Assembly: GCA_001873185.1 (NCBI GenBank)
Contig: MNYQ01000136.1
Coordinates: 401 to 64,400 of the forward strand
From: Ignavibacteria bacterium CG2_30_36_16
GTDB taxonomy: Bacteria; Bacteroidota; Ignavibacteria; Ignavibacteriales; Ignavibacteriaceae
Direction: 5' to 3'
Length of the DNA stretch: 64,000 nucleotides
The position numbers and the translations under genes were made by a program. Positions 31,710 through 45,030 of the stretch are shown here, piece after piece. Within the stretch, counting starts at the first letter, position 1. The number at the start of each line of letters is the position of its first letter. The notes below the pieces were generated by a model. It was not told where the DNA came from. It made no database searches and worked only from the letters and a program-made list of their open reading frames with translations.

Positions 31710-32321
31710 TTTTCAATTGTTAGTATTAAAAACGCGGGTAAAATTATCAAATTAGGATTATACAATCAATGTATTCTCGATTGATTTAAACAAAAAAGCC
31801 ACGCATATTCCGGCGGGGCTTTTGCGTAAAATAATTATCGAATTGTAGAGTAGGACAAGGGCGCAGTTCCCGCTTGCGGGACTGTTTCTCTTGAACCCCC
31901 GTCACCCGCCCCGTAACAAAAATATTTTTACCGCCAGCTTGATTAATAATTATGAGCGGTTTAACTTGCATTTGCAATTAATGCTAAAGGCTTGGAACTG
32001 GTGACTTTTGATATATTTATTCGGTGTGGTTTTAAGAATTAAATAATCATTTTTTTAATAATACAGAGGGTGTATTATAAACAGTAACTATTTTCTTTTT
32101 CCTAACGGCTTCAGTGTTGTACTTCTTTCAGTTCCGCGCAGCGCGGAAAATACTCCTCTCGAAGGTTCCCGCAATTTAATACTCAATTTTAAAATCTATC
32201 TTTTAGCAATTGTTTTTATTAGCAGGGCAGATGATATTGAACAATTAAATAACCCGGACAAACAGAAAAACAACAACAAATTACTTTTAAGAAAAGAAAT
32301 TTCGCACCCGCGCTTTGCCGA

Positions 32322-32545
32322 CATGCACCCATACAAAGGCTCCATACATTCATTCAAAGCCTTCATACACCCATACAAAGATTCCATACATTCATTCAAA
32401 ACCTCCATGCAGTCATGCAAAGGTTACGTGCATTCAATCAAAGCCATCTTGCGGTCGTTCAAAGCCATCTTGCAGTCATTCAAAGCCATCTTACGTGTGA
32501 GCGAAATCATCTTGCGGGCGTTCAAAGCCATCTTGCAACGGCGCA
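32322..32545. repeat. Tandem array of about 10.5 degenerate 21-bp units
   Basis: Units start at 32322, 32343, 32364 ... 32532. The best-conserved form is CTTGCRGTCRTTCAAAGCCAT, seen in units 7, 8 and 10. Confidence 0.85.
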
Positions 32546-32690: not shown

Positions 32691-33368
32691 ATGCGCGGAA
32701 AACTCGAAAATTATTTTTCGATGCTCAGAAGCGTAGACGGTCTGCTCAAACTGAATACTGTTATTGTTGATGCTGTTGCAGCTTTCAAAAGAGCGGCGTT
32801 AGAACTGAGTAATTTGCTTACCGAAGTAAGCGAATTAGAAACAACAAGACCTTCGACCACCACGGGTAAAACCGAAAAAAAGCGAAACGCCAAATACGCG
32901 CTTTGCGAGGCAGGCGCAAATGTATGCGCAGCTATCAGGGTTTACGCCGAAGAGACTGAGAAGAAAGATTTGCTTGCGGAAGCGATGTATACCGAAAGCG
33001 ACTTTAAGAGAATGCGGGACACCGAGCTGCCCGATAAAGTTGGCGCGGTAAAAAATCTGGCTGAGGCAAACAAAACCGATTTAGCGGATTATGGTGTTGA
33101 CCAGGCGGAGATAGACAACCTTGCTACCCTTATTACAGCATATAACAGCGCGATGGCGGAGAAGGATGATATTGTAGCCGGCAGCATTTACTCTACACAG
33201 GCGCTTGAAGGGCTTGAGGAAAGAGGACGTAAAATAATAAACCGGCTCGATCTGCTTGTAGAACGTTTGCAGACAACACAGTCGGAATTTTGCGGCAAAT
33301 ACCTTACAGCACGCCGTATAATTGACGTTGGTGTAAGGCACGAAAAACCCGAACCGACGAATCCGTGA
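32691..33368 (+). CDS. Hypothetical protein (225 aa), visibly more GC-rich than the downstream cassettes
   Basis: Long ORF with AGGAG 7 nt upstream of the ATG. I recognised no motif. Confidence 0.6.
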   Translation: MRGKLENYFSMLRSVDGLLKLNTVIVDAVAAFKRAALELSNLLTEVSELETTRPSTTTGKTEKKRNAKYALCEAGANVCAAIRVYAEETEKKDLLAEAMYTESDFKRMRDTELPDKVGAVKNLAEANKTDLADYGVDQAEIDNLATLITAYNSAMAEKDDIVAGSIYSTQALEGLEERGRKIINRLDLLVERLQTTQSEFCGKYLTARRIIDVGVRHEKPEPTNP

Positions 33369-33402
33369 TGGAAGTAAAAGGAATGTACGGTGGAGTTTTA
33401 AT

Positions 33403-33440
33403 CATTATACATTATACATTATACATTGTACATTGTTCAT
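33403..33440. repeat. 7-bp microsatellite (CATTATA-type, about 5 units)
   Basis: cattatacattatacattatacattgtacattgttcat. Confidence 0.8.
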
Positions 33441-33491
33441 CGTGCATTCTTTCTGATTGTTTACTGCTGGTAAGTTATTTGAAGAGATAAG

Positions 33492-33509
33492 ATCCGTTTG
33501 TTAACGGAT
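33492..33509. repeat. PAL-1 palindrome copy (variant)
   Basis: atccgtttgttaacggat. Confidence 0.55.
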
Positions 33510-33556
33510 TAAAAATTTTTGTGAAGGTTTTTGATTTGGAGTTTTTTATTGGTAAG

Positions 33557-33697
33557 CTTTGCTTTTTGCGGATGTAAAAAGTAGAAGGAAATTTTTTCCC
33601 GCTAGAAGCGGGATGTATTCCAAAAATAAAATTAATTGCGGTGTTGTGTTTTAACAACTTGTCCCGATATTATCGGGATAACACGTCGTTATGCGTT
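33557..33697 (+). repeat. attC-like composite repeat, copy A1 (5' limit uncertain)
   Basis: Contains hairpins H2-H5 of the family. It ends gtcccgatattatcgggaTAACacgtcGTTATGCGTT. Confidence 0.75.
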
Positions 33698-33704
33698 CAA
33701 AAAA

Positions 33705-36377
33705 ATGATAAAAAGTATAACAGAATTATCTCCATATGAACTTGGAGAGACCAATAAAATTGAGGCAATACCATTTATTATTGAATATTTGGAAAATGGT
33801 AGTTCCAACGAAAGGAGATTGGCTGCCTCGGCTATCAATAAGCTTAAAATTATTTATCACGAGGAATGTAAATCTGCTATTCCTTATCTAATAAATATTC
33901 TGGATGAATCATACCCTCAACAAACTCAATACGCCTTAAAAGCGCTTCTTGGTTTTGATTTACCCAAATATGCGTTACCTATTTTTAAGAAAATTTCAAT
34001 TGAAGGCAAGAAACCTTATAATAAGGAGCTTGCTTTGCAAATTCTAAATACGAAAAACTTTAAAGGCGAAATTCATAATTCTATGGCAAAAAATACTTTT
34101 ATTGATAATAATATTACTGAAGAGCAAAAGGAAGTTATTCATCACCCATTTGGTAAACACGCCAAAGTTTTAGCGGTTGCTGGTTCTGGGAAAACAACCA
34201 CAATGGCTAATAGAATAATCCACTTGATTAAGAATAGATCAGTTCCAAAAGATTCAATTCAAGTTTTAATGTTTAATAAACTTGCTAAAGATCAATTTGT
34301 TAAAAAACTTTTGCAACTTGGCTTATCATTAGAGAACTCACCATCTGTAAATACGTTCCATTCTTTTTGTTATCGAATAATATCATCTGCAATGTCTAAA
34401 GGTCATCTTCCTAAATATGACAATTGGAATGGAGACAAAGAAGAATTGGTGTGGTTCTATCTTGAACTAGTTATTTCAGAACTTGAAAAAAAGAAACTAA
34501 TTCCTCCAAACAGTGTTGATAGAGATGAATGCAAAAACGCAATAAGTTTATGGAAAGGATCTCTTATTCCACCTAGTAGGGCTGGTTATAAAGGTAATGA
34601 AAATTATGCAATTGTATATAAATATTTTGAAGATAAGCGAAACTACAAAAAAGCCATTACATTTGATGATTTTGTTCCATTAACGATTGAATCAATAACC
34701 GGTTCTAATTCTGCATATTTCAAAGATAATATTTCGTTTTTAATCGTGGACGAGTACCAAGATGTTAATTATGGGCAGCAAAAGTTAATTGAACTAATAA
34801 CAAATAAATCTACAGACATTATGGTCGTTGGAGACGATGACCAAACGATATACGAGTGGAGGGGGGCAAGACCAGAATATATAATTAATGATTTCGATAT
34901 AGTTTTTAATAATAAATCCGTAACAGAATATAAACTTTCACATTCTTTTCGTTTTGGTCCTTTAATCGCACAATCCGCTCAGAATTGTATAAGCCACAAT
35001 ACCAAACGAACAGAAAAGAATCTTCTTTCAAAGTCGATAAATCAATCAATTATTTCTATTCTCAGTGAATCATCAGAACAAAGCACTGATGTTGAAAAAC
35101 AAATGGTAGAGCAGATTATTGTATTGGTTAAAAGCGGACATTCCCTACCAAATGATGTTGTTGTATTAGTTCGTCTGTATCACCAATTGTTCGGTATGGA
35201 GAAGGAATTACTAGCTAGAAAAGTGCCTTATCGAGTGGTAGGTCAAAGTCCATTTTTCGAGAGAAAAGAAATTAAATCCTTAATAAATTATATAACACTA
35301 AGTAAATCACTAGATGTAGCTGTTAATGAGGATAACAAAAACACTCTTTTCTCAATTATTAATTATCCATCGAGGAAAATCACCAGAAGTGAAATTGAGC
35401 GATATGTCAATAAAGCTATATCAAGTGGCGCGACATATAGAGAACTAATCTCAAAGCTTTACGAGGACGAGGTCTCGATATTCATTTCTCTTCAAAAAGA
35501 CAGATTATTAGAATTTCATTATTTACTAGAAAAATTGGAAGAAAAAATTATTGATAAAAATAATTTAGCTGGTAATATTCTAAAGTGGTTAGTGGAGAAA
35601 ATTGAATTAAAAAAATATTTTATTGATTACTATGGCGATGGTGAGTCCTCAAATGATCGTATAAAGGTTGTTGATAAATTTATTGAATATGCTACAAGTA
35701 CAAACAAACCTTTGTCCCATTTTATAGAGCATTTGTCAAAGCTTGATACTACAAGAGGTAAAAGACCTGAAGAGCAAATATTATTAACATCAATTTTCAG
35801 AACAAAAGGTTTGGAATATGACTATGTCTTTATCCCAGAATGTATCGAAGGAAATATGCCTTGCCTAAAGGGTAATGAAATTAATATTTATGACAAAACT
35901 AGCCAAGTAAAGGAGCCGAAACCCTCAGAGGTTATACAAAATGAAAGACGTTTATTTTATGTCGCTATAACAAGGGCTCGAAAAGCCTGTTTTGTTGGAA
36001 CTTCATCGATTCCAAAGGAGGGTCTTCAACAGTCCTCAAATCCGGCAAAACATTCAAGATTCATTGAAGAGATTGAATTTGATAAGCTATCAAAAATATA
36101 TAATTACCTTAATCTTTCAGAAATATCAGATGAGGATTTTAATAAGCTAATAAATGACGTCAACACAAATTCATTAAACAAAAATACTCTTAATAATTTT
36201 CTGTACTATTTAACGGATAAACTTGATACAAACAAACTAGGTCAATTAAGTAAAATAATATTAAAATTATCACCCAAACCATTTTGTTATGCAACGAGTT
36301 ATAATTCTGATTTAGAATCAAGTAAAATTAAGAAACCAGAAAAATGGAGAAGTATTTGGGACGAAATAGAATTATAA
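33705..36377 (+). CDS. UvrD/Rep-family helicase with an N-terminal HEAT-repeat domain (cassette 1)
   Basis: Helicase motifs are AVAGSGKTTT, VDEYQDVN, VGDDDQTIYEWRGA, FRTKGLEYD and FYVAITRARK. The N-terminal ~140 aa are HEAT-like. The start is taken at ATG 33705 because the track's 33636 start lies inside repeat A1. Confidence 0.85.
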   Translation: MIKSITELSPYELGETNKIEAIPFIIEYLENGSSNERRLAASAINKLKIIYHEECKSAIPYLINILDESYPQQTQYALKALLGFDLPKYALPIFKKISIEGKKPYNKELALQILNTKNFKGEIHNSMAKNTFIDNNITEEQKEVIHHPFGKHAKVLAVAGSGKTTTMANRIIHLIKNRSVPKDSIQVLMFNKLAKDQFVKKLLQLGLSLENSPSVNTFHSFCYRIISSAMSKGHLPKYDNWNGDKEELVWFYLELVISELEKKKLIPPNSVDRDECKNAISLWKGSLIPPSRAGYKGNENYAIVYKYFEDKRNYKKAITFDDFVPLTIESITGSNSAYFKDNISFLIVDEYQDVNYGQQKLIELITNKSTDIMVVGDDDQTIYEWRGARPEYIINDFDIVFNNKSVTEYKLSHSFRFGPLIAQSAQNCISHNTKRTEKNLLSKSINQSIISILSESSEQSTDVEKQMVEQIIVLVKSGHSLPNDVVVLVRLYHQLFGMEKELLARKVPYRVVGQSPFFERKEIKSLINYITLSKSLDVAVNEDNKNTLFSIINYPSRKITRSEIERYVNKAISSGATYRELISKLYEDEVSIFISLQKDRLLEFHYLLEKLEEKIIDKNNLAGNILKWLVEKIELKKYFIDYYGDGESSNDRIKVVDKFIEYATSTNKPLSHFIEHLSKLDTTRGKRPEEQILLTSIFRTKGLEYDYVFIPECIEGNMPCLKGNEINIYDKTSQVKEPKPSEVIQNERRLFYVAITRARKACFVGTSSIPKEGLQQSSNPAKHSRFIEEIEFDKLSKIYNYLNLSEISDEDFNKLINDVNTNSLNKNTLNNFLYYLTDKLDTNKLGQLSKIILKLSPKPFCYATSYNSDLESSKIKKPEKWRSIWDEIEL

Positions 36378-36572
36378 ACGCATAACAAGTTATTCCGTTT
36401 AAAGTCAACTTAAAATTTAGATGTTCGTTAAATTTTGTTAAGTGCTTTCGGGGCGTAGTTATCCCGAAAAAACAAAAACAACCCTTGCTTTTTGCGTATG
36501 TAAAAAGTAGAAGGAAATCATTAAAATAAAATTAAATACGGTGTTGTGTTTTAACAACTTGTCCCGTTCGTT
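36377..36572 (+). repeat. attC-like composite repeat, copy A2 (H3 deleted, 3' end truncated)
   Basis: Begins with AACGCATAAC, the exact reverse complement of 33688-33697. It shares the 5' module with A5, lacks the TCCCGC..GCGGGA hairpin, and ends gtcccGTTCGTT. Confidence 0.75.
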
Positions 36573-36824
36573 AGCCAACGGATTGCCAGTGGAGTTTGTA
36601 TATACAGAATTAGCGCAATGAAGGAAGGGAAAACACTTTTTAATGAATCCAAGCAGATGGTATTAGTCAAATAATAAAAATGAGGCGTCTTTTTAAAAAT
36701 AAATTTTAATAAAAATATAGTATGCAAACCGCCTTGCATACTATAAGAAATTTTGGCAGCATAATTAATACTTAACCATTTTGGTTAAAATCTAATAATA
36801 ATATTTTTCTAAGGAGGAAAATTT

Positions 36825-39140
36825 GTGAAAAGAGCAGCTTTACTTATCGCCTTTGTAATTCTTGGCAATATTACAATTGCACAGTGGGTACAAACCAATG
36901 GACCGTACGGCGGCGAAATTCAATGCTTTGCCGTCTCGGGCTCGAATCTCTTTGCCGGAACTTATGGCGGCGGCGTCTTTCTTTCCACTAACAACGGCAC
37001 AAGCTGGACGGAGGTCAATTCTGGTTTGACTAATACTGATGTAAGTGCCCTTGCCGTCTCGAGCTTGAATCTCCTTGCCGGAACTCGTGGCGGCGGCGTC
37101 TTTCTATCGACCAACAACGGCACAAGCTGGACAGCAGTCAATTCTGGTTTGACCAATAATTCTGTACATGCCCTTGCCGTCTCGGGCACGAATCTCTTTG
37201 CCGGGACCGGTGGTGGCGTCTTTCTTTCCACGGACAACGGCACAAGCTGGACTGCGGTCAATTCTGGTTTGACCAGTACTAGAGTATATGCCCTTGCCGT
37301 CTCGGGCTTGAATCTCTTTGCCGGAACTTGGAACAGCGGCGTCTTTCTATCCACCAACAACGGCACAAGCTGGACGGAGGTCAATTCCGGTTTGACCAGT
37401 ACCTATGTGTATGCCCTTGCCGTCTCGGGATCGAATCTCTTTGCCGGAACTTATTACGGCGGCGTCTTTCTTTCCACTAACAACGGCACAAGCTGGACGG
37501 AGGTCAATTCTGGTTTGACTAATACTTCTGTACGTGCCCTTGCCGTCTCCGGCACGAATCTCTTTGCCGGAACTCTTGGCGGTGTCTTTCTTTCCACCAA
37601 CAACGGCACAAGCTGGACGGAGGTCAATTCTGGTTTGACTAATACTCATGTACTTGCCTTTGCCGTCTCGGGCGTGAATCTCTTTGCCGGAACTTGGGGC
37701 GGCGTCTTTCTTTCCACCAACAACGGCACAAGCTGGACGGAGGTCAATTCTGGTTTGACCAATTCTTATGTATTTGCCTTTGCAGTCTCGGGCTCGAATC
37801 TCTTTGCCGGAATTTATGGCGGCGTCTTTCTTTCCACTAACAACGGCACAAGCTGGACGGCGGTCAATTCTGGTTTGACTAATACTTCTGTACGTGCCCT
37901 TGCCGTCTCCGGCTCGAATCTCTTTGCCGGAACTGATTACGGCGGCGTCTTTCTTTCCACTAACAACGGCACAAGCTGGACGGAGGTCAATTCTGGTTTG
38001 ACTAATACTTTTGTACTTGCCCTTGCCGTCTCGGGCTCGAATCTCTTTGCCGGAACTGGCGGCGGCGGCGTCTTTCTTTCCACCAACAACGGCACAAGCT
38101 GGACGGAAGTCAATTCTGGTTTGACCAATACTTCTGTACTTGACTTTGCCGTCTCGGGCTCGAATCTCTTTGCCGGAACTTTTAACGGCGTCTTTCTTTC
38201 CACCAACAACGGCACAAACTGGACGGCGGTCAATTTTGGTTTGACCAATACTTATGTAAGAGTCTTTGCTGTCTCAAGCTCGAATCTCTTCGCCGGAACT
38301 GAGGGCGGGGTCTTTCTTTCCACCAACAACGGCACAAGCTGGACGGCGGTCAATTCTGGTTTGACTAATACTCATGTACTTGCCTTTGCCGTCTCTGGCG
38401 CGAATCTCTTTGCCGGAACTTATAGCGGCGTCTTTCTTTCCACCGACAACGGCACAAGCTGGACGGCGGTCAATTCTGGTTTGACCTATACTTATGTCAA
38501 TGCCCTTGCCGTCTCGGGCGTGAATCTCTTTGCCGGGACTTGGGGCGGCGGTGTTTGGAGAAGGCCCTTGGATGAGATACCAGTAGAGCTCACATCATTC
38601 GCAGCATCAGTACAGGAAAATAAAGTTGTTCTTAACTGGGCAACGGCAACAGAAACAAATAATCAGGGATTTGAGATTGAAAGAAAACTATTCGGCAGTA
38701 ATTATGAAAAAATTGGATCTGTAACTGGTTTCGGAACGACAACCGAACCAAAATCATATTCATTTAAAGATGAAAATGTTACTAGTGAAAAATATTCATA
38801 TAGATTAAAACAGATTGACTTTGACGGAACATTTGAATACTCAAATGTGATAGAAGTAGAAGTTGACTTTACTCCCAAAGAATATACACTCTATCAAAAC
38901 TACCCCAACCCATTCAACCCAAGCACAACAATCAGCTTCTCAATTCCTGAGGGGAGTTTTGTAACGCTTAAAATTTATGATATGCTTGGAAGAGAAGTAG
39001 CGATTCTTATCTCCGAAGAATTATCTGCCGGAACCTACTCACAGCAATGGAATGCAGTAGGGTTAGCAGGCGGAATTTACTTCTATAGTTTGCAAGCAGG
39101 TTCTTTCGTTGAGACCATGAAACTCGTTTTGCTTAAGTAA
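36825..39140 (+). CDS. Secreted beta-propeller-type repeat protein (BNR/Ycf48-like repeats) with a T9SS C-terminal sorting domain
   Basis: GTG start with AGGAGG upstream, followed by a signal peptide. It carries about 13-14 repeats of roughly 40 aa (GGVFLSTNNGTSWTEVNSGLTNTxVxALAVSGSNLFAGT). The C-terminus is NYPNPFNPSTTISF...GIYFYSLQAG. Confidence 0.88.
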   Translation: MKRAALLIAFVILGNITIAQWVQTNGPYGGEIQCFAVSGSNLFAGTYGGGVFLSTNNGTSWTEVNSGLTNTDVSALAVSSLNLLAGTRGGGVFLSTNNGTSWTAVNSGLTNNSVHALAVSGTNLFAGTGGGVFLSTDNGTSWTAVNSGLTSTRVYALAVSGLNLFAGTWNSGVFLSTNNGTSWTEVNSGLTSTYVYALAVSGSNLFAGTYYGGVFLSTNNGTSWTEVNSGLTNTSVRALAVSGTNLFAGTLGGVFLSTNNGTSWTEVNSGLTNTHVLAFAVSGVNLFAGTWGGVFLSTNNGTSWTEVNSGLTNSYVFAFAVSGSNLFAGIYGGVFLSTNNGTSWTAVNSGLTNTSVRALAVSGSNLFAGTDYGGVFLSTNNGTSWTEVNSGLTNTFVLALAVSGSNLFAGTGGGGVFLSTNNGTSWTEVNSGLTNTSVLDFAVSGSNLFAGTFNGVFLSTNNGTNWTAVNFGLTNTYVRVFAVSSSNLFAGTEGGVFLSTNNGTSWTAVNSGLTNTHVLAFAVSGANLFAGTYSGVFLSTDNGTSWTAVNSGLTYTYVNALAVSGVNLFAGTWGGGVWRRPLDEIPVELTSFAASVQENKVVLNWATATETNNQGFEIERKLFGSNYEKIGSVTGFGTTTEPKSYSFKDENVTSEKYSYRLKQIDFDGTFEYSNVIEVEVDFTPKEYTLYQNYPNPFNPSTTISFSIPEGSFVTLKIYDMLGREVAILISEELSAGTYSQQWNAVGLAGGIYFYSLQAGSFVETMKLVLLK
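36900..38560 (+). repeat. In-frame tandem DNA repeats (period about 120-123 nt) inside the beta-propeller gene
   Basis: gtcaattctggtttgac recurs at 37016, 37138, 37258, 37623, 37743, 37863, 37986, 38109, 38349 and 38469. One-mismatch variants (gtcaattccggtttgac, gtcaattttggtttgac) fill the series at 37379 and 38229. The flanking sequence is near-identical between units. Confidence 0.9.
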
Positions 39141-39258
39141 AACGAAAGCGGAAATCTTTTCCCGCTAGAAGCGGGATTGGCGCCCAAAATAATTAATATG
39201 GCAATGTTGTGTTTTAACAACTTGTCCCGCTTTGCGGGCTAACACGCCGTTATATAGC
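39141..39258 (+). repeat. attC-like composite repeat, copy A3 (short form, H3-H5 only)
   Basis: aacgaaagcggaaatcttttCCCGCtagaaGCGGG...gtcccgctttgcgggcTAACacgccGTTATATAGC. Confidence 0.75.
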
Positions 39259-39269
39259 TTAGGAAAACT

Positions 39270-39971
39270 ATGACAATTGATAATTCAGAAATAATTCTGA
39301 AATGGTATATTGATTTAGAAGAAAGATTCGTAAGTTTGACTAAATCAATTCCAATAAATCCCAAAAACATAAAAGTAGAATTACCACTATTAGCTAGCAT
39401 TATTGTGGAAGGTGGAAGTTTAATTGACACCATTTTTAGAGAAGAATGTAATAATGGTAAAAGAAAAGATAGAAACAATATTGGCGCTTATTGTAAATAT
39501 TTTGAGCCTCAGATTCATTTAATGAATGCATTATCTGTCCCGCTTGTATTTCCACCACAATATTTAAACCCATTTAAAGGTTGGTATGTTAAGTCAAGGA
39601 ACGATTATAAGGCAAGAAAATGGTGGCAGAATTATAATTTTATTAAACATAGCCGTATAGAGAATTCGCATTTTTCAACAATGGAAACAGCTTTTTTAAC
39701 ATTATGTGGTTTACACCAAGTAATGACAAAGATTGACATATTTATTGATAGTTTGTTACGAAATGGATTTGTTTCTTATGGCGGATTAAATCTTGATTAC
39801 TTATTGAACAAGATAAGAAACAAAGAATATTATGGAAGGATATTAATTGAAACAAAATTATTCGCAACTCCATTTGGTATCCACAACTTTCCTAAGGATA
39901 TAAATCATATTCGTCCAATTGATTGGGGAAGTAGTAGAAAATTTTCTGAGTTTTTAGGTAGAGAAAGTTAA
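39270..39971 (+). CDS. Hypothetical protein (cassette 3), possible HEPN-type nuclease
   Basis: 233 aa. The segment WWQNYNFIKHSRIENSH contains an R-x4-H motif of HEPN type. This rests on motif-level evidence only. Confidence 0.6.
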   Translation: MTIDNSEIILKWYIDLEERFVSLTKSIPINPKNIKVELPLLASIIVEGGSLIDTIFREECNNGKRKDRNNIGAYCKYFEPQIHLMNALSVPLVFPPQYLNPFKGWYVKSRNDYKARKWWQNYNFIKHSRIENSHFSTMETAFLTLCGLHQVMTKIDIFIDSLLRNGFVSYGGLNLDYLLNKIRNKEYYGRILIETKLFATPFGIHNFPKDINHIRPIDWGSSRKFSEFLGRES

Positions 39972-39974
39972 AAC

Positions 39975-40318
39975 GCTATATACCGTTACAAGGTTTCACG
40001 CCAAGCGCAGCCGGGCATAATCCAGTGTTCCCCGTAAAGAAACGGGGTCTATGGATGGACTAAGCCGAAAAGCGGCTTAACCCGGACACTTGCATTTTCA
40101 GTAGTACATTTTATAAGTGTGTTAACTCTTGCGGGACGCAGCTATCCCGAAAGAAGAATATAACCCTTCCTTTTTGCGTATGTAAAAAGTAGAAGGAAAT
40201 CTTTTCCCGCTAGAAGCGGGATTGGCGCTCAAAATAATTAATACAGCAGTGTTGTGTTTTAACAACTTGTCCCGCCCGTTAGCCAACGGACTGACGGGAT
40301 AAAAAGGCGTTATACTGA
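39975..40318 (+). repeat. attC-like composite repeat, copy A4 (unique 5' multi-hairpin module plus H1-H5)
   Basis: Begins with GCTATATAcC, which matches the reverse complement of 39249-39258 at 9 of 10 positions. It ends gtcccgCCCGTTAGCCAACGGactgacgggaTAAAaaggcGTTATACTGA. Confidence 0.75.
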
Positions 40319-40399
40319 TAGAGAAATAATTACATCAATACTTGAATTTCTTTTTTGGCTTTTCTATTATTAAGCCTATAAAATAAAGAAGGTGTGAAA

Positions 40400-40600
40400 A
40401 TGGATTCAAAAAATATTATTCAAAGCGCATTAAATCTAAGCCCTGCGGAGAGACTTTTTATAATTGATGCTATTTCTAAAAGTTTAAGTGAGCCTGATAA
40501 AGATATTGATGAATATTGGAAAGACGAAGTTGAAAAACGATATGATGCTTTTATAAAAGGGAAAGTAAAAAGAATTCCTTACGAGGAAATTAGAAAATAA
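40400..40600 (+). CDS. Antitoxin, putative addiction-module component (TIGR02574-like)
   Basis: The sequence SALNLSPAERLFIIDAISKSL...YWKDEVEKRYDAFIKGKV matches the family pattern. The stop overlaps the toxin start. ATG 40400 is preferred to GTG 40394. Confidence 0.8.
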   Translation: MDSKNIIQSALNLSPAERLFIIDAISKSLSEPDKDIDEYWKDEVEKRYDAFIKGKVKRIPYEEIRK

Positions 40601-40887
40601 TGTTAGTTGAATTTCTTGAACCTGCACATATAGAATATCAAGAAGCTATCGAATTTTATAATCTGCAAAGTGAAGGATTGGGCGATAAATTTATTATTGA
40701 AGTAGATAGGACTATATCAATAATAAAAAAATATCCAGAGAGTTTTTGCGAATATACTAGCCATACAAGAAAAGCTGTTGTGAGTATTTTCCCTTATAAT
40801 ATTATTTATGCTCTTCACAAAAATTACATTGAAGTAATTGCAATTGCACACCAACATAGAAAACCGAATTTTTGGTTAAATAGATAA
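40600..40887 (+). CDS. Type II toxin, RelE/ParE family
   Basis: 95 aa. The ParE-like pattern is LEPAHIEYQEAIEFY at the N-terminus and AIAHQHRKP at the C-terminus. Confidence 0.8.
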   Translation: MLVEFLEPAHIEYQEAIEFYNLQSEGLGDKFIIEVDRTISIIKKYPESFCEYTSHTRKAVVSIFPYNIIYALHKNYIEVIAIAHQHRKPNFWLNR

Positions 40888-40896
40888 TAGCAAAAG

Positions 40897-41154
40897 CAGT
40901 ATAATCAGTTACTCCGATTAAAGCCAACTTAAAATTTAGATGTTCGTTAAACTTTTTTAAGTGCTTTCGGGGCGCAGCTATCCCGAAAGAACAAAAACAA
41001 CCCTTGCTTTTTGCGTATGTAAAAAGTAGAAGGAAATCTTTTCCCGCCGGAAGCGGGATTGGTGCCCAAAATAATTAATACGGCAGTGTTGTGTTTTAAC
41101 AACTTGTCCCGTCCGTTAGCCAACGGACTGACGGTTAACGCGCCGTTAGCAATT
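40897..41154 (+). repeat. attC-like composite repeat, copy A5 (full-length reference copy)
   Basis: CAGTATAA (40897-40904) is the reverse complement of 40310-40317. Hairpins are H1 40964-40989, H2 41002-41033, H3 41042-41058, H4 41088-41103 and H5 41106-41134. The unit ends TTAAC gcgcc GTTAGCA. Confidence 0.8.
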
Positions 41155-41245
41155 CAAAGGTTTAAGCCAATTTAAAGATTTATTTGGAAGGTTTCTAAAG
41201 AAATTCTCCACTTGATTAAAGTAAGCCAATGGATTATATTCGCAT

Positions 41246-41581
41246 ATGCTAATTACAATTGTTGAATTACCTGAATATATAAAGAGCGCAGAAAAAGAAC
41301 TATCAAAAGATGAAAGAGATGAATTGATTTATTATTTGTCTTCTAATCCTAAAGCTGGAACTTTAATGCAAGGAACTGGAGGTGTAAGAAAGTTAAGGTG
41401 GGCTTCAAAAGGTAAAGGTAAAAGCGGTGGTTCCAGAGTTATATACTTTTACTATAATGAAACTATTCCCCTATTCTTATTAACAATATTCGGGAAAAAT
41501 GAAAAGATTAATTTAAGCAAAGCTGAACGGAATGAATTAGCAAAATTTGTAAAAGAATTAGTAAAAAGTTATAAAAGGTAA
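41246..41581 (+). CDS. Type II toxin, RelE/HigB-like (cassette 5)
   Basis: 111 aa. The motif GGVRKLRWASKGKGKSGGSRVIYFY is typical of HigB-2-type toxins that sit upstream of an HTH antitoxin. Confidence 0.78.
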   Translation: MLITIVELPEYIKSAEKELSKDERDELIYYLSSNPKAGTLMQGTGGVRKLRWASKGKGKSGGSRVIYFYYNETIPLFLLTIFGKNEKINLSKAERNELAKFVKELVKSYKR

Positions 41582-41584
41582 AAA

Positions 41585-41872
41585 ATGAGTGAAGCATATA
41601 AAAGTATAAGTAAAGGATTGAAAGAAGCAATTGAATATTCTAAAGGAAATAATAAGGGAGTCAGAGAATTTAGGGCGAAACATATTGATGTGAAAAAGTT
41701 GAGAGAAAGAATTGGAATGAGTCAGCCAAAATTTGCAGCGTCATTTGGGATTAGTTTGGGAACATTAAGACATTGGGAAAGAAGAGATAGGTATCCACAA
41801 GGTCCGGCTTTAGTTTTATTAAATTTATTATCAAAAGACCCAAACACAGTATTAGAAGTTTTACATAAGTAA
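41585..41872 (+). CDS. HTH (XRE-type) antitoxin, HigA-like
   Basis: 95 aa. The HTH segment is LRERIGMSQPKFAASFGISLGTLRHWE. It lies 3 nt downstream of the toxin gene. Confidence 0.8.
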   Translation: MSEAYKSISKGLKEAIEYSKGNNKGVREFRAKHIDVKKLRERIGMSQPKFAASFGISLGTLRHWERRDRYPQGPALVLLNLLSKDPNTVLEVLHK

Positions 41873-41895
41873 GTTGCGCAACCTAACCAGTGCTT

Positions 41896-42132
41896 GCTAA
41901 TGAACCACTATCGCTAATGCCGGAATGCTAAAGTGTGGTTGCAGAATAAGAGGCGTTTTAAGAATAAACGGCATCAATAGGATTTTTTTTAAATATAAAT
42001 CGGAAAAATGAACATAGCTATTTGGCGACCATTGAAAGCTTAAAAAAAATTACAGAATAGGCTCAAATTATTTTTATAAAACAGCGTCTGTTTATGTCGC
42101 TGCAATTTGGTTAAGCAAATAACCAAAATATC
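41896..42132 (+). repeat. Non-coding repeat B, copy B1
   Basis: About 237 nt that align with 43022-43260 along the whole length, with roughly nine in ten positions identical by eye. No ORF is present. Confidence 0.85.
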
Positions 42133-42169
42133 TAGATTTTAGAGGATAATAATTTTGTCACTTTGGGTG

Positions 42170-42294
42170 TTGAGATTTTTTCCCGCTAAAAGCGGGATTG
42201 GTGCCCAAAATAATTAATACGGCAGTGTTGGATTTTAATAACATGTCCCATCCGTTAGCTAACGGACCATCGGGATAACACGCCGTTAGGTGCT
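42170..42294 (+). repeat. attC-like composite repeat, copy A6 (H3-H5 part)
   Basis: tttttTCCCGCtaaaaGCGGGAttggtgcccaaaataattaatacggcag...gtcccaTCCGTTAGCTAACGGAccatcgggaTAACacgccGTTAGGTGCT. Confidence 0.75.
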
Positions 42295-42365
42295 TAATTA
42301 GTTTATTTTATTTCAAAAATAGAGTAAATTAGAGAAAGCAATATTAGAAGACAGGATAATAAGAA

Positions 42366-42608
42366 ATGGAAAATGAAGGATTTTATAATAAGTTCGAATC
42401 ACTTCCAATAGAAGCACAGAAACAAGTATTGACGTTTATAGATTTCTTACAAAAAAGATATGAATCTAAAAGCAAAAAGCTTCGCGAATGGAAACCTATA
42501 AAAGATAAGAAATTTGTTGGGATATGGGAAAACCGGGAAGATGTAAATGATAGCTCTTTATGGATAAGGAATTTACGAAAGAAAGAGTGGAGAGAAATTG
42601 GCGAATAA
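42366..42608 (+). CDS. Antitoxin (DUF2281-like) paired with a PIN toxin
   Basis: 80 aa. The segment LPIEAQKQVLTFIDFLQKRY is typical of DUF2281. It overlaps the PIN gene by 11 nt. Confidence 0.72.
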   Translation: MENEGFYNKFESLPIEAQKQVLTFIDFLQKRYESKSKKLREWKPIKDKKFVGIWENREDVNDSSLWIRNLRKKEWREIGE

Positions 42609-42990
42609 TTTTTCAATAATTGATTCTGATATACTGATTGATATTGGAAGAAAGGATACAACAGCAATAAAAAGGCTGGAAGAAGAACGAAAAACTTCCA
42701 TGCCAGCAATTAGCTCGGTTACTCAAATGGAATTACTTATTGGTTGTAGAAATAAAACTGAATTAAAACATTTAGATAAATTCCTAGAAGATTTTGAAAT
42801 CATTAGCTTTAACTACGAGATAACACAAAAAGCAATTGAACTTCTTAAAGAATATAAACTTAGCCACGGATTATTAATAGCAGATAGTATTATAGCAGCT
42901 ACTTCACTGGTTTTAGATGTACCTCTTTTAACAAAGAATCAAAAAGATTATAAGTTTATTAGTGGCTTAAAATTATTAAAATATCCTTAA
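42598..42990 (+). CDS. vapC: PIN-domain toxin (VapC-like)
   Basis: 130 aa. Acidic residues sit in the PIN pattern (IIDSDILID, QMELL, LIADSIIAAT). Confidence 0.8.
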   Translation: MANNFSIIDSDILIDIGRKDTTAIKRLEEERKTSMPAISSVTQMELLIGCRNKTELKHLDKFLEDFEIISFNYEITQKAIELLKEYKLSHGLLIADSIIAATSLVLDVPLLTKNQKDYKFISGLKLLKYP

Positions 42991-43021
42991 TCAGCAAGAG
43001 CGCACACACTACCATGCTGCT

Positions 43022-43260
43022 GCTAATGAACCACTATCGCTAATGCCGGAATGCTAAAGTGTGGTTGCAGAATAAGAGGCGTTTTAAGAATAAACGGCAT
43101 CAATTGGATTTTATTTTTTAATATAAAACAGAAAAATGAACATAGCTATTTGGCTACCATTGAAGACTTAAAAAAAATTACAGAATAGGCTCAAATTGTT
43201 TTTATAAAATAGCGTCTGTTTATGTCGCTTCAATTTGGTTTAGTGAATAACCATAATACC
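43022..43260 (+). repeat. Non-coding repeat B, copy B2
   Basis: Paralogue of 41896-42132, again placed immediately after a toxin-antitoxin module. Confidence 0.85.
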
Positions 43261-43370
43261 GGGTTTGCTTTTCTACGTATTTTACTCTTTGTTCTTTGAC
43301 TTTCTGTTGTTACTGGGCGATACCTTCGTCTACGTAATCAATACCTTCGGTCATTATAGTATTGATATGC

Positions 43371-43388
43371 ATCCATTAGCTAACGGAT
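43371..43388. repeat. PAL-1 palindrome copy
   Basis: atccattagctaacggat. Confidence 0.6.
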
Positions 43389-43709
43389 TCATAATTCAAA
43401 ATTGCGGCTTGCCGCGCAGTGGAGCTAAGAAGAAAATGACAATAGCGGTATTATATAAACCAGTATTCAGTTCCGTAAGAACGAACTGTTATTAGAAATA
43501 GATACGCCCCACACAAATAAGCTCCGTAGAAGCGACTTGTAAAGGATGCAATTGTAAATTTTCATGTGTTTAAAGAAGCAATAGTCGGTTCCTATGGAGC
43601 TAAAATAATTGTTCCCTCTAAAATGCTAACAAAAGACCGCTCCTACGGAGCTAAAATAATTCTTTGTTATTCATGTTACAAACAGAAAACTCCGATAGTA
43701 TTGGAAAGT

Positions 43710-43727
43710 ATCCGTTAGCCAACGGAT
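43710..43727. repeat. PAL-1 palindrome copy
   Basis: atccgttagccaacggat followed by ttttt. Confidence 0.7.
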
Positions 43728-43770
43728 TTTTTATGTCAAGATATTTATCTCGCAAGCGGGATTGCGTTTC

Positions 43771-43812
43771 ATTCAAAATTCATAATTCATAATTCATAAT
43801 TCATAATTCAAT
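43771..43812. repeat. 7-bp microsatellite (ATTCATA x4 plus degenerate flanking units)
   Basis: attcaaaattcataattcataattcataattcataattcaat. Confidence 0.85.
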
Positions 43813-44022
43813 ATGGCGGCTCGCCGCGCTATGTTATAGTAAGTAACTGCTAATTTTCCCTGCAAGCTGGATGTTCCGTTTATTTGATTCGTTTTTTTTG
43901 ACTCCAATTAAATTTATTTATACATGCCCAAATTTAATAAAAGTCCCTTTCCAACTTAAGCATTATACTTTTTCCTTTCTCCCCTCTGCTTTATATTAGC
44001 TTCATAAAAATTCAAACATACT

Positions 44023-45030
44023 TTGAACAAAAAACATTTTACTATACCGGTTTTTATTCCCGAGGAGGCATGCCCCTTTCAGTGTATATTTTGCAACCAG
44101 AAAAAAATTTCGGGACAGATGCATCTTCCTTCATTTGATGAAATACACAGGATCATCGAAAAATATCTTTCCACTATTCCAAAAGAAAACTCCGAAATTG
44201 AAATTGGGTTTTTCGGAGGTAATTTTACCGGTATCCCATTAGATCAGCAGGAAAAATATCTTCAGATCGCTAATGAATATTTAGGGAATAGAATCTCGGC
44301 AATTCGTTTATCTACACGCCCAGACTATATAAATAAAGATGTAATAAATTTATTAAAAAGTTATAATGTAAAAACTGTTGAACTCGGCGCACAGTCGCTT
44401 GATGATGAGGTTCTGAAAGAAAGCGGACGAGGTCATAAGGCGGAAGATGTTATTAACGCATCTATGATCATAAAAAATGCAGGTCTAAATCTCGGTTTGC
44501 AAATGATGATAGGGCTGCCGGGAGATACATTAGAAAAGACAATTTATACAGCTAATAAAATTGTTCAGCTCAAAGCGGATTCTACGCGTATTTATCCTAC
44601 TCTTGTTATTAACGGAACTGCACTTCAAAAACTTTTTAGCGCCGGTAAGTACAAACCTTTAGAACTTGATGAGGCAGTAAATTGGACTAAAATTATCCTC
44701 CCAATTTTTGAAAATGGAAATGTTGATATTTTAAGAATCGGTCTTCATCCATCGGAAGGGTTATTAAACGGGCACGAATTAGTTGCGGGACCTTTTCATG
44801 TATCGTTTAAGGAACTTGTGCTTACAAGTATTTGGCACGATTTGCTATCCGCTTTGGAATTCGAAAAAGATAAAATGGAGATAACAATAACCGCCAATGA
44901 ACGAGAATTAAATTATGCTTCTGGTTATAAAGCGAGCAACCGTAAAATGCTTGAAAAAAGATTCCGCAAGGTTAGGTTCGCTGCCGATCCAACTTTAACT
45001 AAACGAGAGTTTAATGTTCTTTATAGTTAA
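44023..45030 (+). CDS. Radical SAM protein (ELP3-like core without an acetyltransferase domain)
   Basis: TTG start. The CxxxCxxC motif is CPFQCIFCNQ near the N-terminus, and the fold-typical GGNFTG follows. Confidence 0.82.
   Translation: MNKKHFTIPVFIPEEACPFQCIFCNQKKISGQMHLPSFDEIHRIIEKYLSTIPKENSEIEIGFFGGNFTGIPLDQQEKYLQIANEYLGNRISAIRLSTRPDYINKDVINLLKSYNVKTVELGAQSLDDEVLKESGRGHKAEDVINASMIIKNAGLNLGLQMMIGLPGDTLEKTIYTANKIVQLKADSTRIYPTLVINGTALQKLFSAGKYKPLELDEAVNWTKIILPIFENGNVDILRIGLHPSEGLLNGHELVAGPFHVSFKELVLTSIWHDLLSALEFEKDKMEITITANERELNYASGYKASNRKMLEKRFRKVRFAADPTLTKREFNVLYS

Follow-up and report, generated by a model that had tools for sequence, protein, structure and literature searches.

The repeat units of this DNA appear to be the attC sites of integron cassettes, and the region of 33.7-43.3 kb that holds them would be an integrase-less (CALIN-type) cassette array of a groundwater Ignavibacteria; we put the probability of this reading at about 0.8. 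Integrons are the main bacterial gene-capture system, and to our knowledge nearly all that is known of attC comes from Proteobacteria, whose sites measure 57-141 bp. Cassette boundaries in integrons fall directly 3' of the G of R', such that the bases beyond it form the start of the following cassette and must be complementary to that cassette's own R''. The original prediction, which concerned the 258-base unit A5, had described five hairpins maintained by selection on structure and had offered a folded single-stranded DNA recombination site or a structured RNA as explanations. The first of these, in the form of an attC, is the one we favor; the argument that led to it does not hold in the form given, and the elements that define the site, a terminal R''/R' pair and the L''/L' arms, had been missed.

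We analyzed a 64,000-nt stretch of DNA, referred to here as the window. It contains six repeat units (A1-A6), all on the + strand, each located 3' of a + strand block of one or two genes, with a spacing of 837-2900 nt (Table 1). Toxin-antitoxin pairs make up three of the gene blocks in the array. No integrase and no attI-like site was found in the 64-kb window, and a tRNA/tmRNA search found none. The array thus has the composition of a CALIN, with at least two attC-type sites on one strand, less than 4 kb apart, and an integrase absent nearby; the term is an IntegronFinder category for a cluster of attC sites lacking an integron integrase (PMC4889954). A groundwater MAG (GCA_009994855.1) matches the window. 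Because the array order is identical in six metagenome assemblies, no activity is seen in this population.

Table 1. Positions of the array, its cassettes, the repeat units, the parts of unit A5 and the PAL-1 sites in the window. Assignments as cassette or attC are putative.
Feature	Position	Strand	Sequence or remarks
Cassette array	33689-43258	+	six co-oriented cassettes; no integrase gene in the 64-kb window
Cassette 1	starts at T33689	+	UvrD-like helicase gene; attC is unit A2
Cassette 2		+	BNR/T9SS protein gene; attC is unit A3
Cassette 3		+	gene for a 233-aa protein without assigned function; attC is unit A4
Cassette 4		+	Unstab_antitox and ParE genes; attC is unit A5
Cassette 5		+	RelE/HigB and HTH antitoxin (HigB/HigA-like) genes; attC is unit A6
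Cassette 6		+	DUF2281 and PIN genes; then the 3'-truncated seventh unit
Unit A1	about 33549-33694	+	attC-like; H2, H3, H4, H5, L', R' GTTATGC at 33688-33694
Unit A2	36377-36590	+	attC of the UvrD-like helicase cassette; R'' AACGCATAAC at 36377-36386
Unit A3	39141-39255	+	short attC ending the BNR/T9SS cassette; H3, H4, H5 (loop CTTTG)
Unit A4	39975-40315	+	attC of the 233-aa cassette; R'' GCTATATACC at 39975-39984, directly followed by GTTACAAGG
A5 R''	40896-40905	+	GCAGTATAAT; pairs with own cassette start GTTATACTGA at 40309-40318
A5 L''	40908-40916	+	GTTACTCCG; 2 nt 3' of R''
A5 optional hairpin modules H1-H3	40964-41058	+	in the long stretch between the L arms
A5 H1	40964-40971 / 40982-40989	+	CTTTCGGG / CCCGAAAG
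A5 H2	41002-41012 / 41021-41033	+	CCTTgCTTTTT / AAAAAG..AAGG
A5 H3	41042-41047 / 41053-41058	+	TCCCGC / GCGGGA
A5 conserved 3' core	41088-41134	+	H4 41088-41103, H5 41106-41134
A5 H4	41088-41092 / 41099-41103	+	GTTGT / ACAAC
A5 H5	41106-41111 / 41132-41134	+	GTCCCG / CGG; encloses the PAL-1 palindrome CCGTTAGCCAACGG at 41113-41126
A5 3' arm	41132-41151	+	L' CGGTTAAC 41132-41139, spacer 41140-41144, R' 41145-41151
Unit A6	41893-42291	+	attC of the HigB/HigA-like cassette; R'' TTGCTAAT at 41893-41900
Truncated seventh unit	43019-43258	+	after the DUF2281/PIN cassette; D7/D5 5' module only; end of the array
PAL-1 sites	4927, 30111, 30171, 33494, 36568, 40276, 41113, 42252, 43373, 43712, 45791, 46463, 50550		

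Two further kinds of repeat were observed in and beside the array. The BNR/T9SS gene (36928-38550) contains ~13 tandem repeats of 120-123 nt, whose copy number varies across metagenome assemblies, giving products of 731, 771 and 811 aa. Just upstream of the array, at 32317-32536, lie about ten tandem 21-nt repeats (CATACA..AAAG..-like) that overlap a 137-aa ORF without a family match; the next ORF, of 225 aa (32691-33368), had no Pfam or NCBIfam match.

ATAAC-N5-GTTRRRY forms the 3' end of every complete unit, and similarity between copies stops after GTTA; this limit holds for the window as well as for about 110 distinct copies found in metagenomes and in MAGs of Ignavibacteria. All R' cores of the window (GTTATGC, GTTATAT, GTTATAC, GTTAGCA and GTTAGGT) fit GTTRRRY, and in an alignment of 52 copies GTTA was conserved and the bases beyond it were variable. 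Cassettes of the window and of related metagenome arrays begin with 10 nt whose reverse complement follows their own last stop codon. For the helicase cassette, the start GTTATGCGTT (33688-33697) has an exact reverse complement (10/10) at 36377, which overlaps the helicase stop codon and is the single occurrence of that sequence in the window. The match between R'' and the reverse complement of the cassette start (39249-39258) extends to 9 of 10 positions for A4, complementarity to the own cassette start covers 5 of the 6 variable positions of the A5 R'', and the R'' of A6 is complementary to the start GTTAGCAA at 41145-41152. The R'' complements are CAGTATAA in the ParE cassette and TTGCTAA in the HigBA cassette.

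The strength of this complementarity was assessed in 23 non-redundant cassettes, in which R'' was defined by its position alone, as the 10 nt that precede the L'' motif, and independently of how the cassette begins. Of the six variable R'' positions, 4.70 paired with the cassette's own start, compared to 2.18 of six for mismatched cassettes (n = 23), and the own-start value was reached by 0 of 20,000 permutations (p ≤ 5e-5). In the same 23 cassettes, 87.8% of R''/cassette-start cells were paired versus 70.5% after shuffling, and 52 cells were compensatory versus 18.9, with 0 of 500 shuffles as good. The R''/R' covariation was 0.503, compared to 0.204 when shuffled (0/500) and 0.04-0.11 in slid controls, and it spans 0.6-3.5 kb of intervening genes. 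Judged from the sequence, the complementarity between R'' and cassette start is the R''/R' signature of integron cassettes. Covariation that extends across a whole cassette is not predicted by a local hairpin, an RNA motif or a dispersed repeat. Mismatches in the R box showed no trend for strand choice.

Two more compact candidates were considered. An attC contained within the 3' 75 nt (with TTAAY/ATAC as R''-like motif; ACGGCAGTGTT with AACACGCCGT) was rejected given the absence of covariation: 81.7% of cells were paired versus 81.8% when shuffled, 341 of 500 shuffles were as good, and the AAC of the candidate R'' is not conserved and does not follow the cassette starts. A second candidate (TTTTAAC ... 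GTTA) is invariant and has 4 bp only, so it cannot explain a cassette-specific complement; it may be a local alternative pairing.

In the proposed organization, a cassette would begin with the TTA that adjoins the G of the preceding R' core, comprise one or two genes, and end with the G of its own R'. R'' (NNNNNNTAAC) would lie directly 3' of the final stop codon, with L'' (GTTAYTCCG or GTTACAAGG) starting 0-2 nt beyond it, and L' (CGGGATAAC) would lie at the far end of the unit, followed by a free 5-nt spacer (AYGNY) and R' (GTTRRRY). In single-stranded DNA, the R'' and R' arms would pair, as would L'' and L'; after excision as a circle, the R box would reach its full 8-11 bp, and an integron integrase supplied in trans would cut between G and TT. 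For A5, the crossover would fall between G41145 and T41146. The stretch between the L arms would then be a giant variable terminal region of about 150-400 nt, built from optional modules (H1, H2, H3, a 'type II' module, D7/D5 and PAL-1) together with an invariant H4-H5 core beside L'.

The span given to A5 in the original prediction (40897-41154) agrees almost exactly with the limits of this attC, from R'' (40896-40905) to R' (41145-41151), and all five hairpins were found where they had been placed. The A5 L'' is complementary to L', with extra bases on the L'' arm; on the 3' arm the spacer GCGCC is unpaired, and R' is GTTAGCA. In type I units generally, L'' GTTATTCCG can pair with L' CGGGATAAC over 9 bp, including one G-T, and units with the L' sequence CGGATAAC or CGGTTAAC would leave 1-2 extra bases on the L'' arm. 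L'' is invariant, and therefore no L''/L' covariation is seen. The L box of type II units consists only of GTTA/TAAC; there, L' could instead pair jointly with two segments, the far GTTA and TCCCG of the H5 5' arm, around a multi-way junction. L' CGGGATAAC also supplies the 3' side of the H5 stem, so that the L box and H5 would be competing pairings. The spacer is asymmetric, with 5 nt (AYGNY, the fourth base free) on the L'-R' arm and 0-2 nt on the R''-L'' arm. The same asymmetry (2 versus 6 nt) is present in the bona fide attC of an Ignavibacterium genome described below, and so it looks like a lineage trait rather than a ground for exclusion.

The full set of five hairpins is present only in A4 and A5; A1 has no H1, and A3 and A6 have neither H1 nor H2. 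A4 begins with a type II 5' module that extends to about 40127 and holds the hairpin pair at 40011-40085, followed by H1-H5 and R' GTTATAC (40309-40315). A6 consists of a D7/D5 5' module (41895-42130), H3, H4, H5 with PAL-1, and R' GTTAGGT (42285-42291). The R' of A3 is GTTATAT (39249-39255), and the seventh unit has neither 3' core nor R'. Lengths are about 115-145 nt for A3, 256 nt for A5, 341 nt for A4 and 399 nt for A6. D7/D5 is a second repeat family, with copies at 41895-42130 and 43021-43258 that are 91-98% identical and hold their own hairpin, AACCAC...GTGGTT. In A2, R'' overlaps the stop codon; AA, L'' GTTATTCCG, H1, H2 and H4 come next, and the unit breaks off after the 5' arm of H5, which holds PAL-1, with L'/R' at the 3' end lost. 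A2 also has no H3. The boundary between A2 and the BNR cassette suggests a deletion or rearrangement. The sequence past the truncated A2 (36591-36824) has no R' junction, and an AT-rich leader precedes the BNR gene; at 36716-36745 lies a perfect hairpin of 13 bp, followed by a T run when read on the minus strand.

Comparison with other genomes showed where cassettes begin and end. The BNR cassette and its attC are ~92-97% identical in the MAG L012 up to ACGCCGTTATAT, at which point (GTTATAT) homology ends; past it, L012 carries a different downstream cassette than the window. Two more discordant junctions were found, in which the same downstream cassette stands behind different upstream cassettes. 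At the level of sequence, these junctions show that the cassettes are exchangeable units and that exchange has occurred between genomes.

A pattern search with the H4-H5 region yielded ~27 true copies in Ignavibacteria/Ignavibacteriaceae MAGs and a further 80 metagenome loci, and a profile search yielded 112 distinct units. Only the 3'-most ~75 nt are constant across genomes, with the form ...GTTGNNTTTTAAYAAC-TT-GTCCCG-loop-CGGGATAAC-AYGNY-GTTA; upstream of this core, units are mosaics of 5' modules. H3 is present or absent as a clean 18-nt indel, H5 and PAL-1 are likewise clean indels, some copies have no H5 (GTGTTGTGTTTTAAC joined to ATAACACGCCGTTA), and another module may stand in place of H1. 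Thus the hairpins, predicted to form a conserved chain, behave in part as independent insertions, that is, as optional modules. Apart from one invariant core, the five hairpins are for the most part optional filler. The 5' module of A4 (CCGGG 40011-40015 / CCCGG 40081-40085), which had been called unique, is so in the window; elsewhere it is found in at least 14 of the 112 distinct units. The H3 stem was indeed identical in five copies, with the loops TAGAA, CGGAA and TAAAA, and the H5 interior differs as had been stated (ATATTAT in A1, CTTTG in A3, PAL-1 in A4-A6), except that PAL-1 is also present in A2.

PAL-1 (CCGTTAGCCAACGG, often the perfect palindrome CCGTTAGCTAACGG) has 13 sites in 64 kb, versus 0.16 expected, within and outside the repeat units. 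A T run follows two of the free copies, and each half of the palindrome is similar to an integron core motif (GTTAG / CTAAC).

PAL-1 behaves like a REP/MITE-like dispersed palindrome: a T run sometimes follows it, and some H5 loops have received it as an insert. One example is the ortholog of A3 in L012, whose H5 loop has a 27-nt PAL-1-type insert that is absent from A3. Taken with the modular, mosaic build of the units and the many genomes in which only single copies per 8 kb are found, this would be expected if the units were miniature non-autonomous mobile repeats (REP-/MITE-like mosaics) in intergenic regions, unrelated to integrons. We consider such an origin highly improbable. Unlike such palindromes, the whole unit is strand-fixed and tied to cassette ends: all copies lie on the gene-sense strand, directly 3' of stop codons. 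Target-site duplications are absent, and the terminal complement is found beyond the gene that precedes the unit, whereas a mobile repeat would have it at its own two ends. Furthermore, the 3' end carries an integron core motif, and integrase remnants occur nearby.

The hairpins were compared in alignments of 46-52 distinct copies from many genomes. H1-H3 were 95.9% paired, with covariation not above that of shuffled controls, and H4, a 4-bp stem in the wider family, had one one-sided change (G-C/G-T) and no two-sided change. The innermost H5 pair is the only one that covaries (CG 20, AU 13, UG 5). Stems kept as sequence in young, related copies are compatible with structure and are no proof of it. 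Both DNA strands and the RNA were folded, as had been suggested. The 265-nt circular form of A5 gave -41.9 kcal/mol for the bottom strand and -42.2 kcal/mol for the top strand, compared to -29 +/- 3.4 for shuffles (z about -3.8 for either strand; 0/200 shuffles as good), and the RNA fold of A5 had z = -3.1. Given these scores and the presence of the hairpins, the observation made on A5 is real and not due to chance. The minimum-energy fold of the top strand contains H1, H2, H3 and the PAL-1 stem, and in the bottom-strand fold of the circular form the R box helix is closed.

We reconstructed 20 attC sites, 226-470 nt long, from the window and other loci. The top strand was predicted to be more stable in 19 of the 20 (-43.0 versus -40.2 kcal/mol) and is slightly purine-rich. 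Wobbles in the hairpins favor the top (gene-sense) strand, with 123 G-T cells versus 19 A-C, an excess that comes mainly from three positions common to many related copies. The better folding of the sense strand, its G-T wobbles, the RNA fold score of A5 and an H4-H5 core whose sequence is invariant across genera would all suit a structured RNA, in which intercistronic or 3'-UTR elements co-transcribed with the cassettes stabilise, process or regulate messages. We think it unlikely that this is what the units primarily are. Rfam 15 gave no match across the window at gathering thresholds, and at E ≤ 5 the region 33000-44500 gave one chance-level match, outside the units. None of H1-H5 was called in an intrinsic terminator test, which detected only free-standing PAL-1 copies at 33491 and 43710. 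The wobble excess is owed largely to the three positions in related copies, and the lack of covariation above shuffles in H1-H3 and of two-sided change in H4 also counts against it. A structured RNA leaves unexplained the conservation edge at GTTA, the cassette-wide R''/R' covariation and the exchange of cassettes. An RNA role could be secondary, on top of attC function, and not its replacement.

Integrons have been reported in Chlorobi and Ignavibacteriae by IntegronFinder papers (PMC9024848, PMC4889954). Our literature search found no description of attC sites from Chlorobi/Ignavibacteriae integrons. Among ~120-130 repeat-bearing loci, the only traces of an integrase were N-terminal remnants in three loci (L081, L100 and L109), and most arrays have no integrase or attI-like site beside them. 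In L081, a unit is preceded on its own strand, at a distance of 270 nt, by a 78-aa ORF whose best NCBIfam match is the N-terminus of TIGR02249; the integron-integrase remnants of L100 and L109 are shorter. Through the closest named homolog of the L081 remnant we reached L126, a locus of an Ignavibacteria MAG in which an integron integrase is broken into three ORFs. Proteins of relatives pass TIGR02249 with 446 and 400 bits (cutoff 265), the latter being the rejoined L126 protein. This rejoined protein has thousands of homologs, many named 'integron integrase' at the source, including those of Ignavibacteriaceae, Ignavibacterium and Melioribacter.

In L126 (10001-11573; GCA_001803125.1 MHAV01000005.1), intI is split by two ~290-nt inserts, each encoding an 85-87-aa GIY-YIG protein, with ORFs that overlap by 4 nt; this is also found in L128, and in L132 (10001-11142) a single insert of this type sits close to the 3' end of a related integrase gene. 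In L126, the initial piece ends ...LAREI*, the same junction as in the 78-aa L081 remnant. Metagenomes often contain isolated 77-aa fragments from the N-terminus of integron integrases, with PF13495 as the sole domain (L131 10001-10234; P0002, P0006, P0043); these can sit among housekeeping genes with an array absent nearby. P0043, followed as a lead to an intact integron, had only such a fragment and no array.

Intact intI and attI are present in the relatives L126, L132, L133, L136 and L138, and none of the intI-bearing loci was found to carry an intact integron with the attC family of the window: the intI contigs L126, L133 and L135 end just past the gene, and L132 and L136 carry other attC types. 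The attI motif AATCGGCTCAATTAATAGTT is absent from the window and the repeat loci. A conserved attI-like motif, AATCGGCTCAATTAATAG|TTA, is found 3' of intI in several Ignavibacteria integrons (L126 11742, L132 11371, L133 11166 and L138 about 11190); the 8-mer AATTAATA also occurs in a conserved stretch just upstream of H4 in window units, which may be a coincidence of AT-rich sequence.

A complete integron is present in the fully sequenced genome of Ignavibacterium sp. (AP026678.1; L136), with a co-oriented intI, attI (..AGTAATAG|TTATACTTACTC), co-oriented cassettes and two attC of 194 nt. In these attC, R'' GTAAGTATAAC is separated by 2 nt from an L'' that has two extra bases, and at the far end TACGCC joins L' to R' GTTATAC. 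This integron belongs to the same bacterial class, and its integrase family passes TIGR02249. Its attC resemble the window units in the order R''-2 nt-L'' and L'-5/6 nt-R', the (in the window putative) extra L'' bases, the ACGCCGTTA motif and the long inter-arm region; they differ in that the internal sequence has no H1-H5 and no match to the core model, and, unlike in the window array, intI and attI adjoin the cassettes. Long attC with an asymmetric layout look like a lineage trait.

The same loci bear on a different enzymology, in which ATAAC-N5-GTTA would be the double-stranded core of another tyrosine recombinase (Xer-like or shufflon-type) that shuffles or inverts gene blocks. The inverted AAC/GTT half-sites around a 5-nt spacer and the inverted 8-10-nt repeats that flank gene blocks are what such a system would leave, and we nevertheless give it very little credence. 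All genes are co-oriented, with no sign of inversion; unlike in double-stranded core sites, the right half-site is not conserved past GTTA; the only recombinases in about 130 loci were integron-integrase remnants; and a bona fide integron in the same family has the same arm motif.

Published attC sites are 57-141 bp long, with 5-6-nt spacers on both arms and, in mobile integrons, a bottom strand that is more stable and purine-rich (PMC5027507). The window units have neither this length nor spacers of 5-6 nt on both arms, and for stability and purine content the 20 reconstructed sites show the reverse (criteria of PMC5027507). A closer parallel is found in the sedentary chromosomal integrons. 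The Vibrio cholerae repeats (VCR), attC of such an integron, are about 123-133 nt long. Like VCR-type integrons, the array has co-oriented cassettes, near-identical lineage-specific attC and toxin-antitoxin cassettes, and its units share with VCR-type attC the R' GTTRRRY, an R'' complementary to the own cassette start, an unpaired spacer, putative extra L'' bases and a long, branched, variable terminal structure. They differ in length (145-470 nt), in the 0-2-nt versus 5-nt spacer, in a variable region made of optional hairpin modules plus an H4-H5 core invariant across genera, and in the predicted greater stability of the top strand. What is unusual is an attC two to three times the published length (about 145-400 nt in the window, 226-470 nt in relatives), with optional hairpin modules between short defining arms.

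These departures in length, spacer, top-strand stability and wobbles leave room for an added RNA-level or regulatory role. A tentative extension, which we hold to be more doubtful than probable, is that Ignavibacteria integrons have a distinct class of giant attC (0.2-0.5 kb) with a multi-hairpin insert of 150-400 nt, in which the H4-H5 core and the sense bias reflect a second selected function. That function could be a platform for accessory factors, an RNA element on cassette transcripts, or an H5-L' switch, in which H5 sequesters L' and so could set when the site is recombinogenic. Reduced recombination has been reported for sites with long terminal structures (PMC5027507).

The accepted rules on how attC fold and which strand they use are strained by sites that are 200-470 nt long, have an asymmetric spacer and are predicted to be more stable on the top strand. 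The default maximum attC size of IntegronFinder is 200 nt, and the units are probably too long for routine CALIN detection. A size limit in routine integron-finding software would cause such arrays to be overlooked or wrongly delimited, and the cassette content of Ignavibacteria and related environmental bacteria may therefore be under-counted. The joining of one 3' core to many 5' modules after stop codons could be a trace of how attC become attached to genes; the modular build thus offers material on the origin of attC and their linkage to genes, and on whether attC also act at the RNA level.
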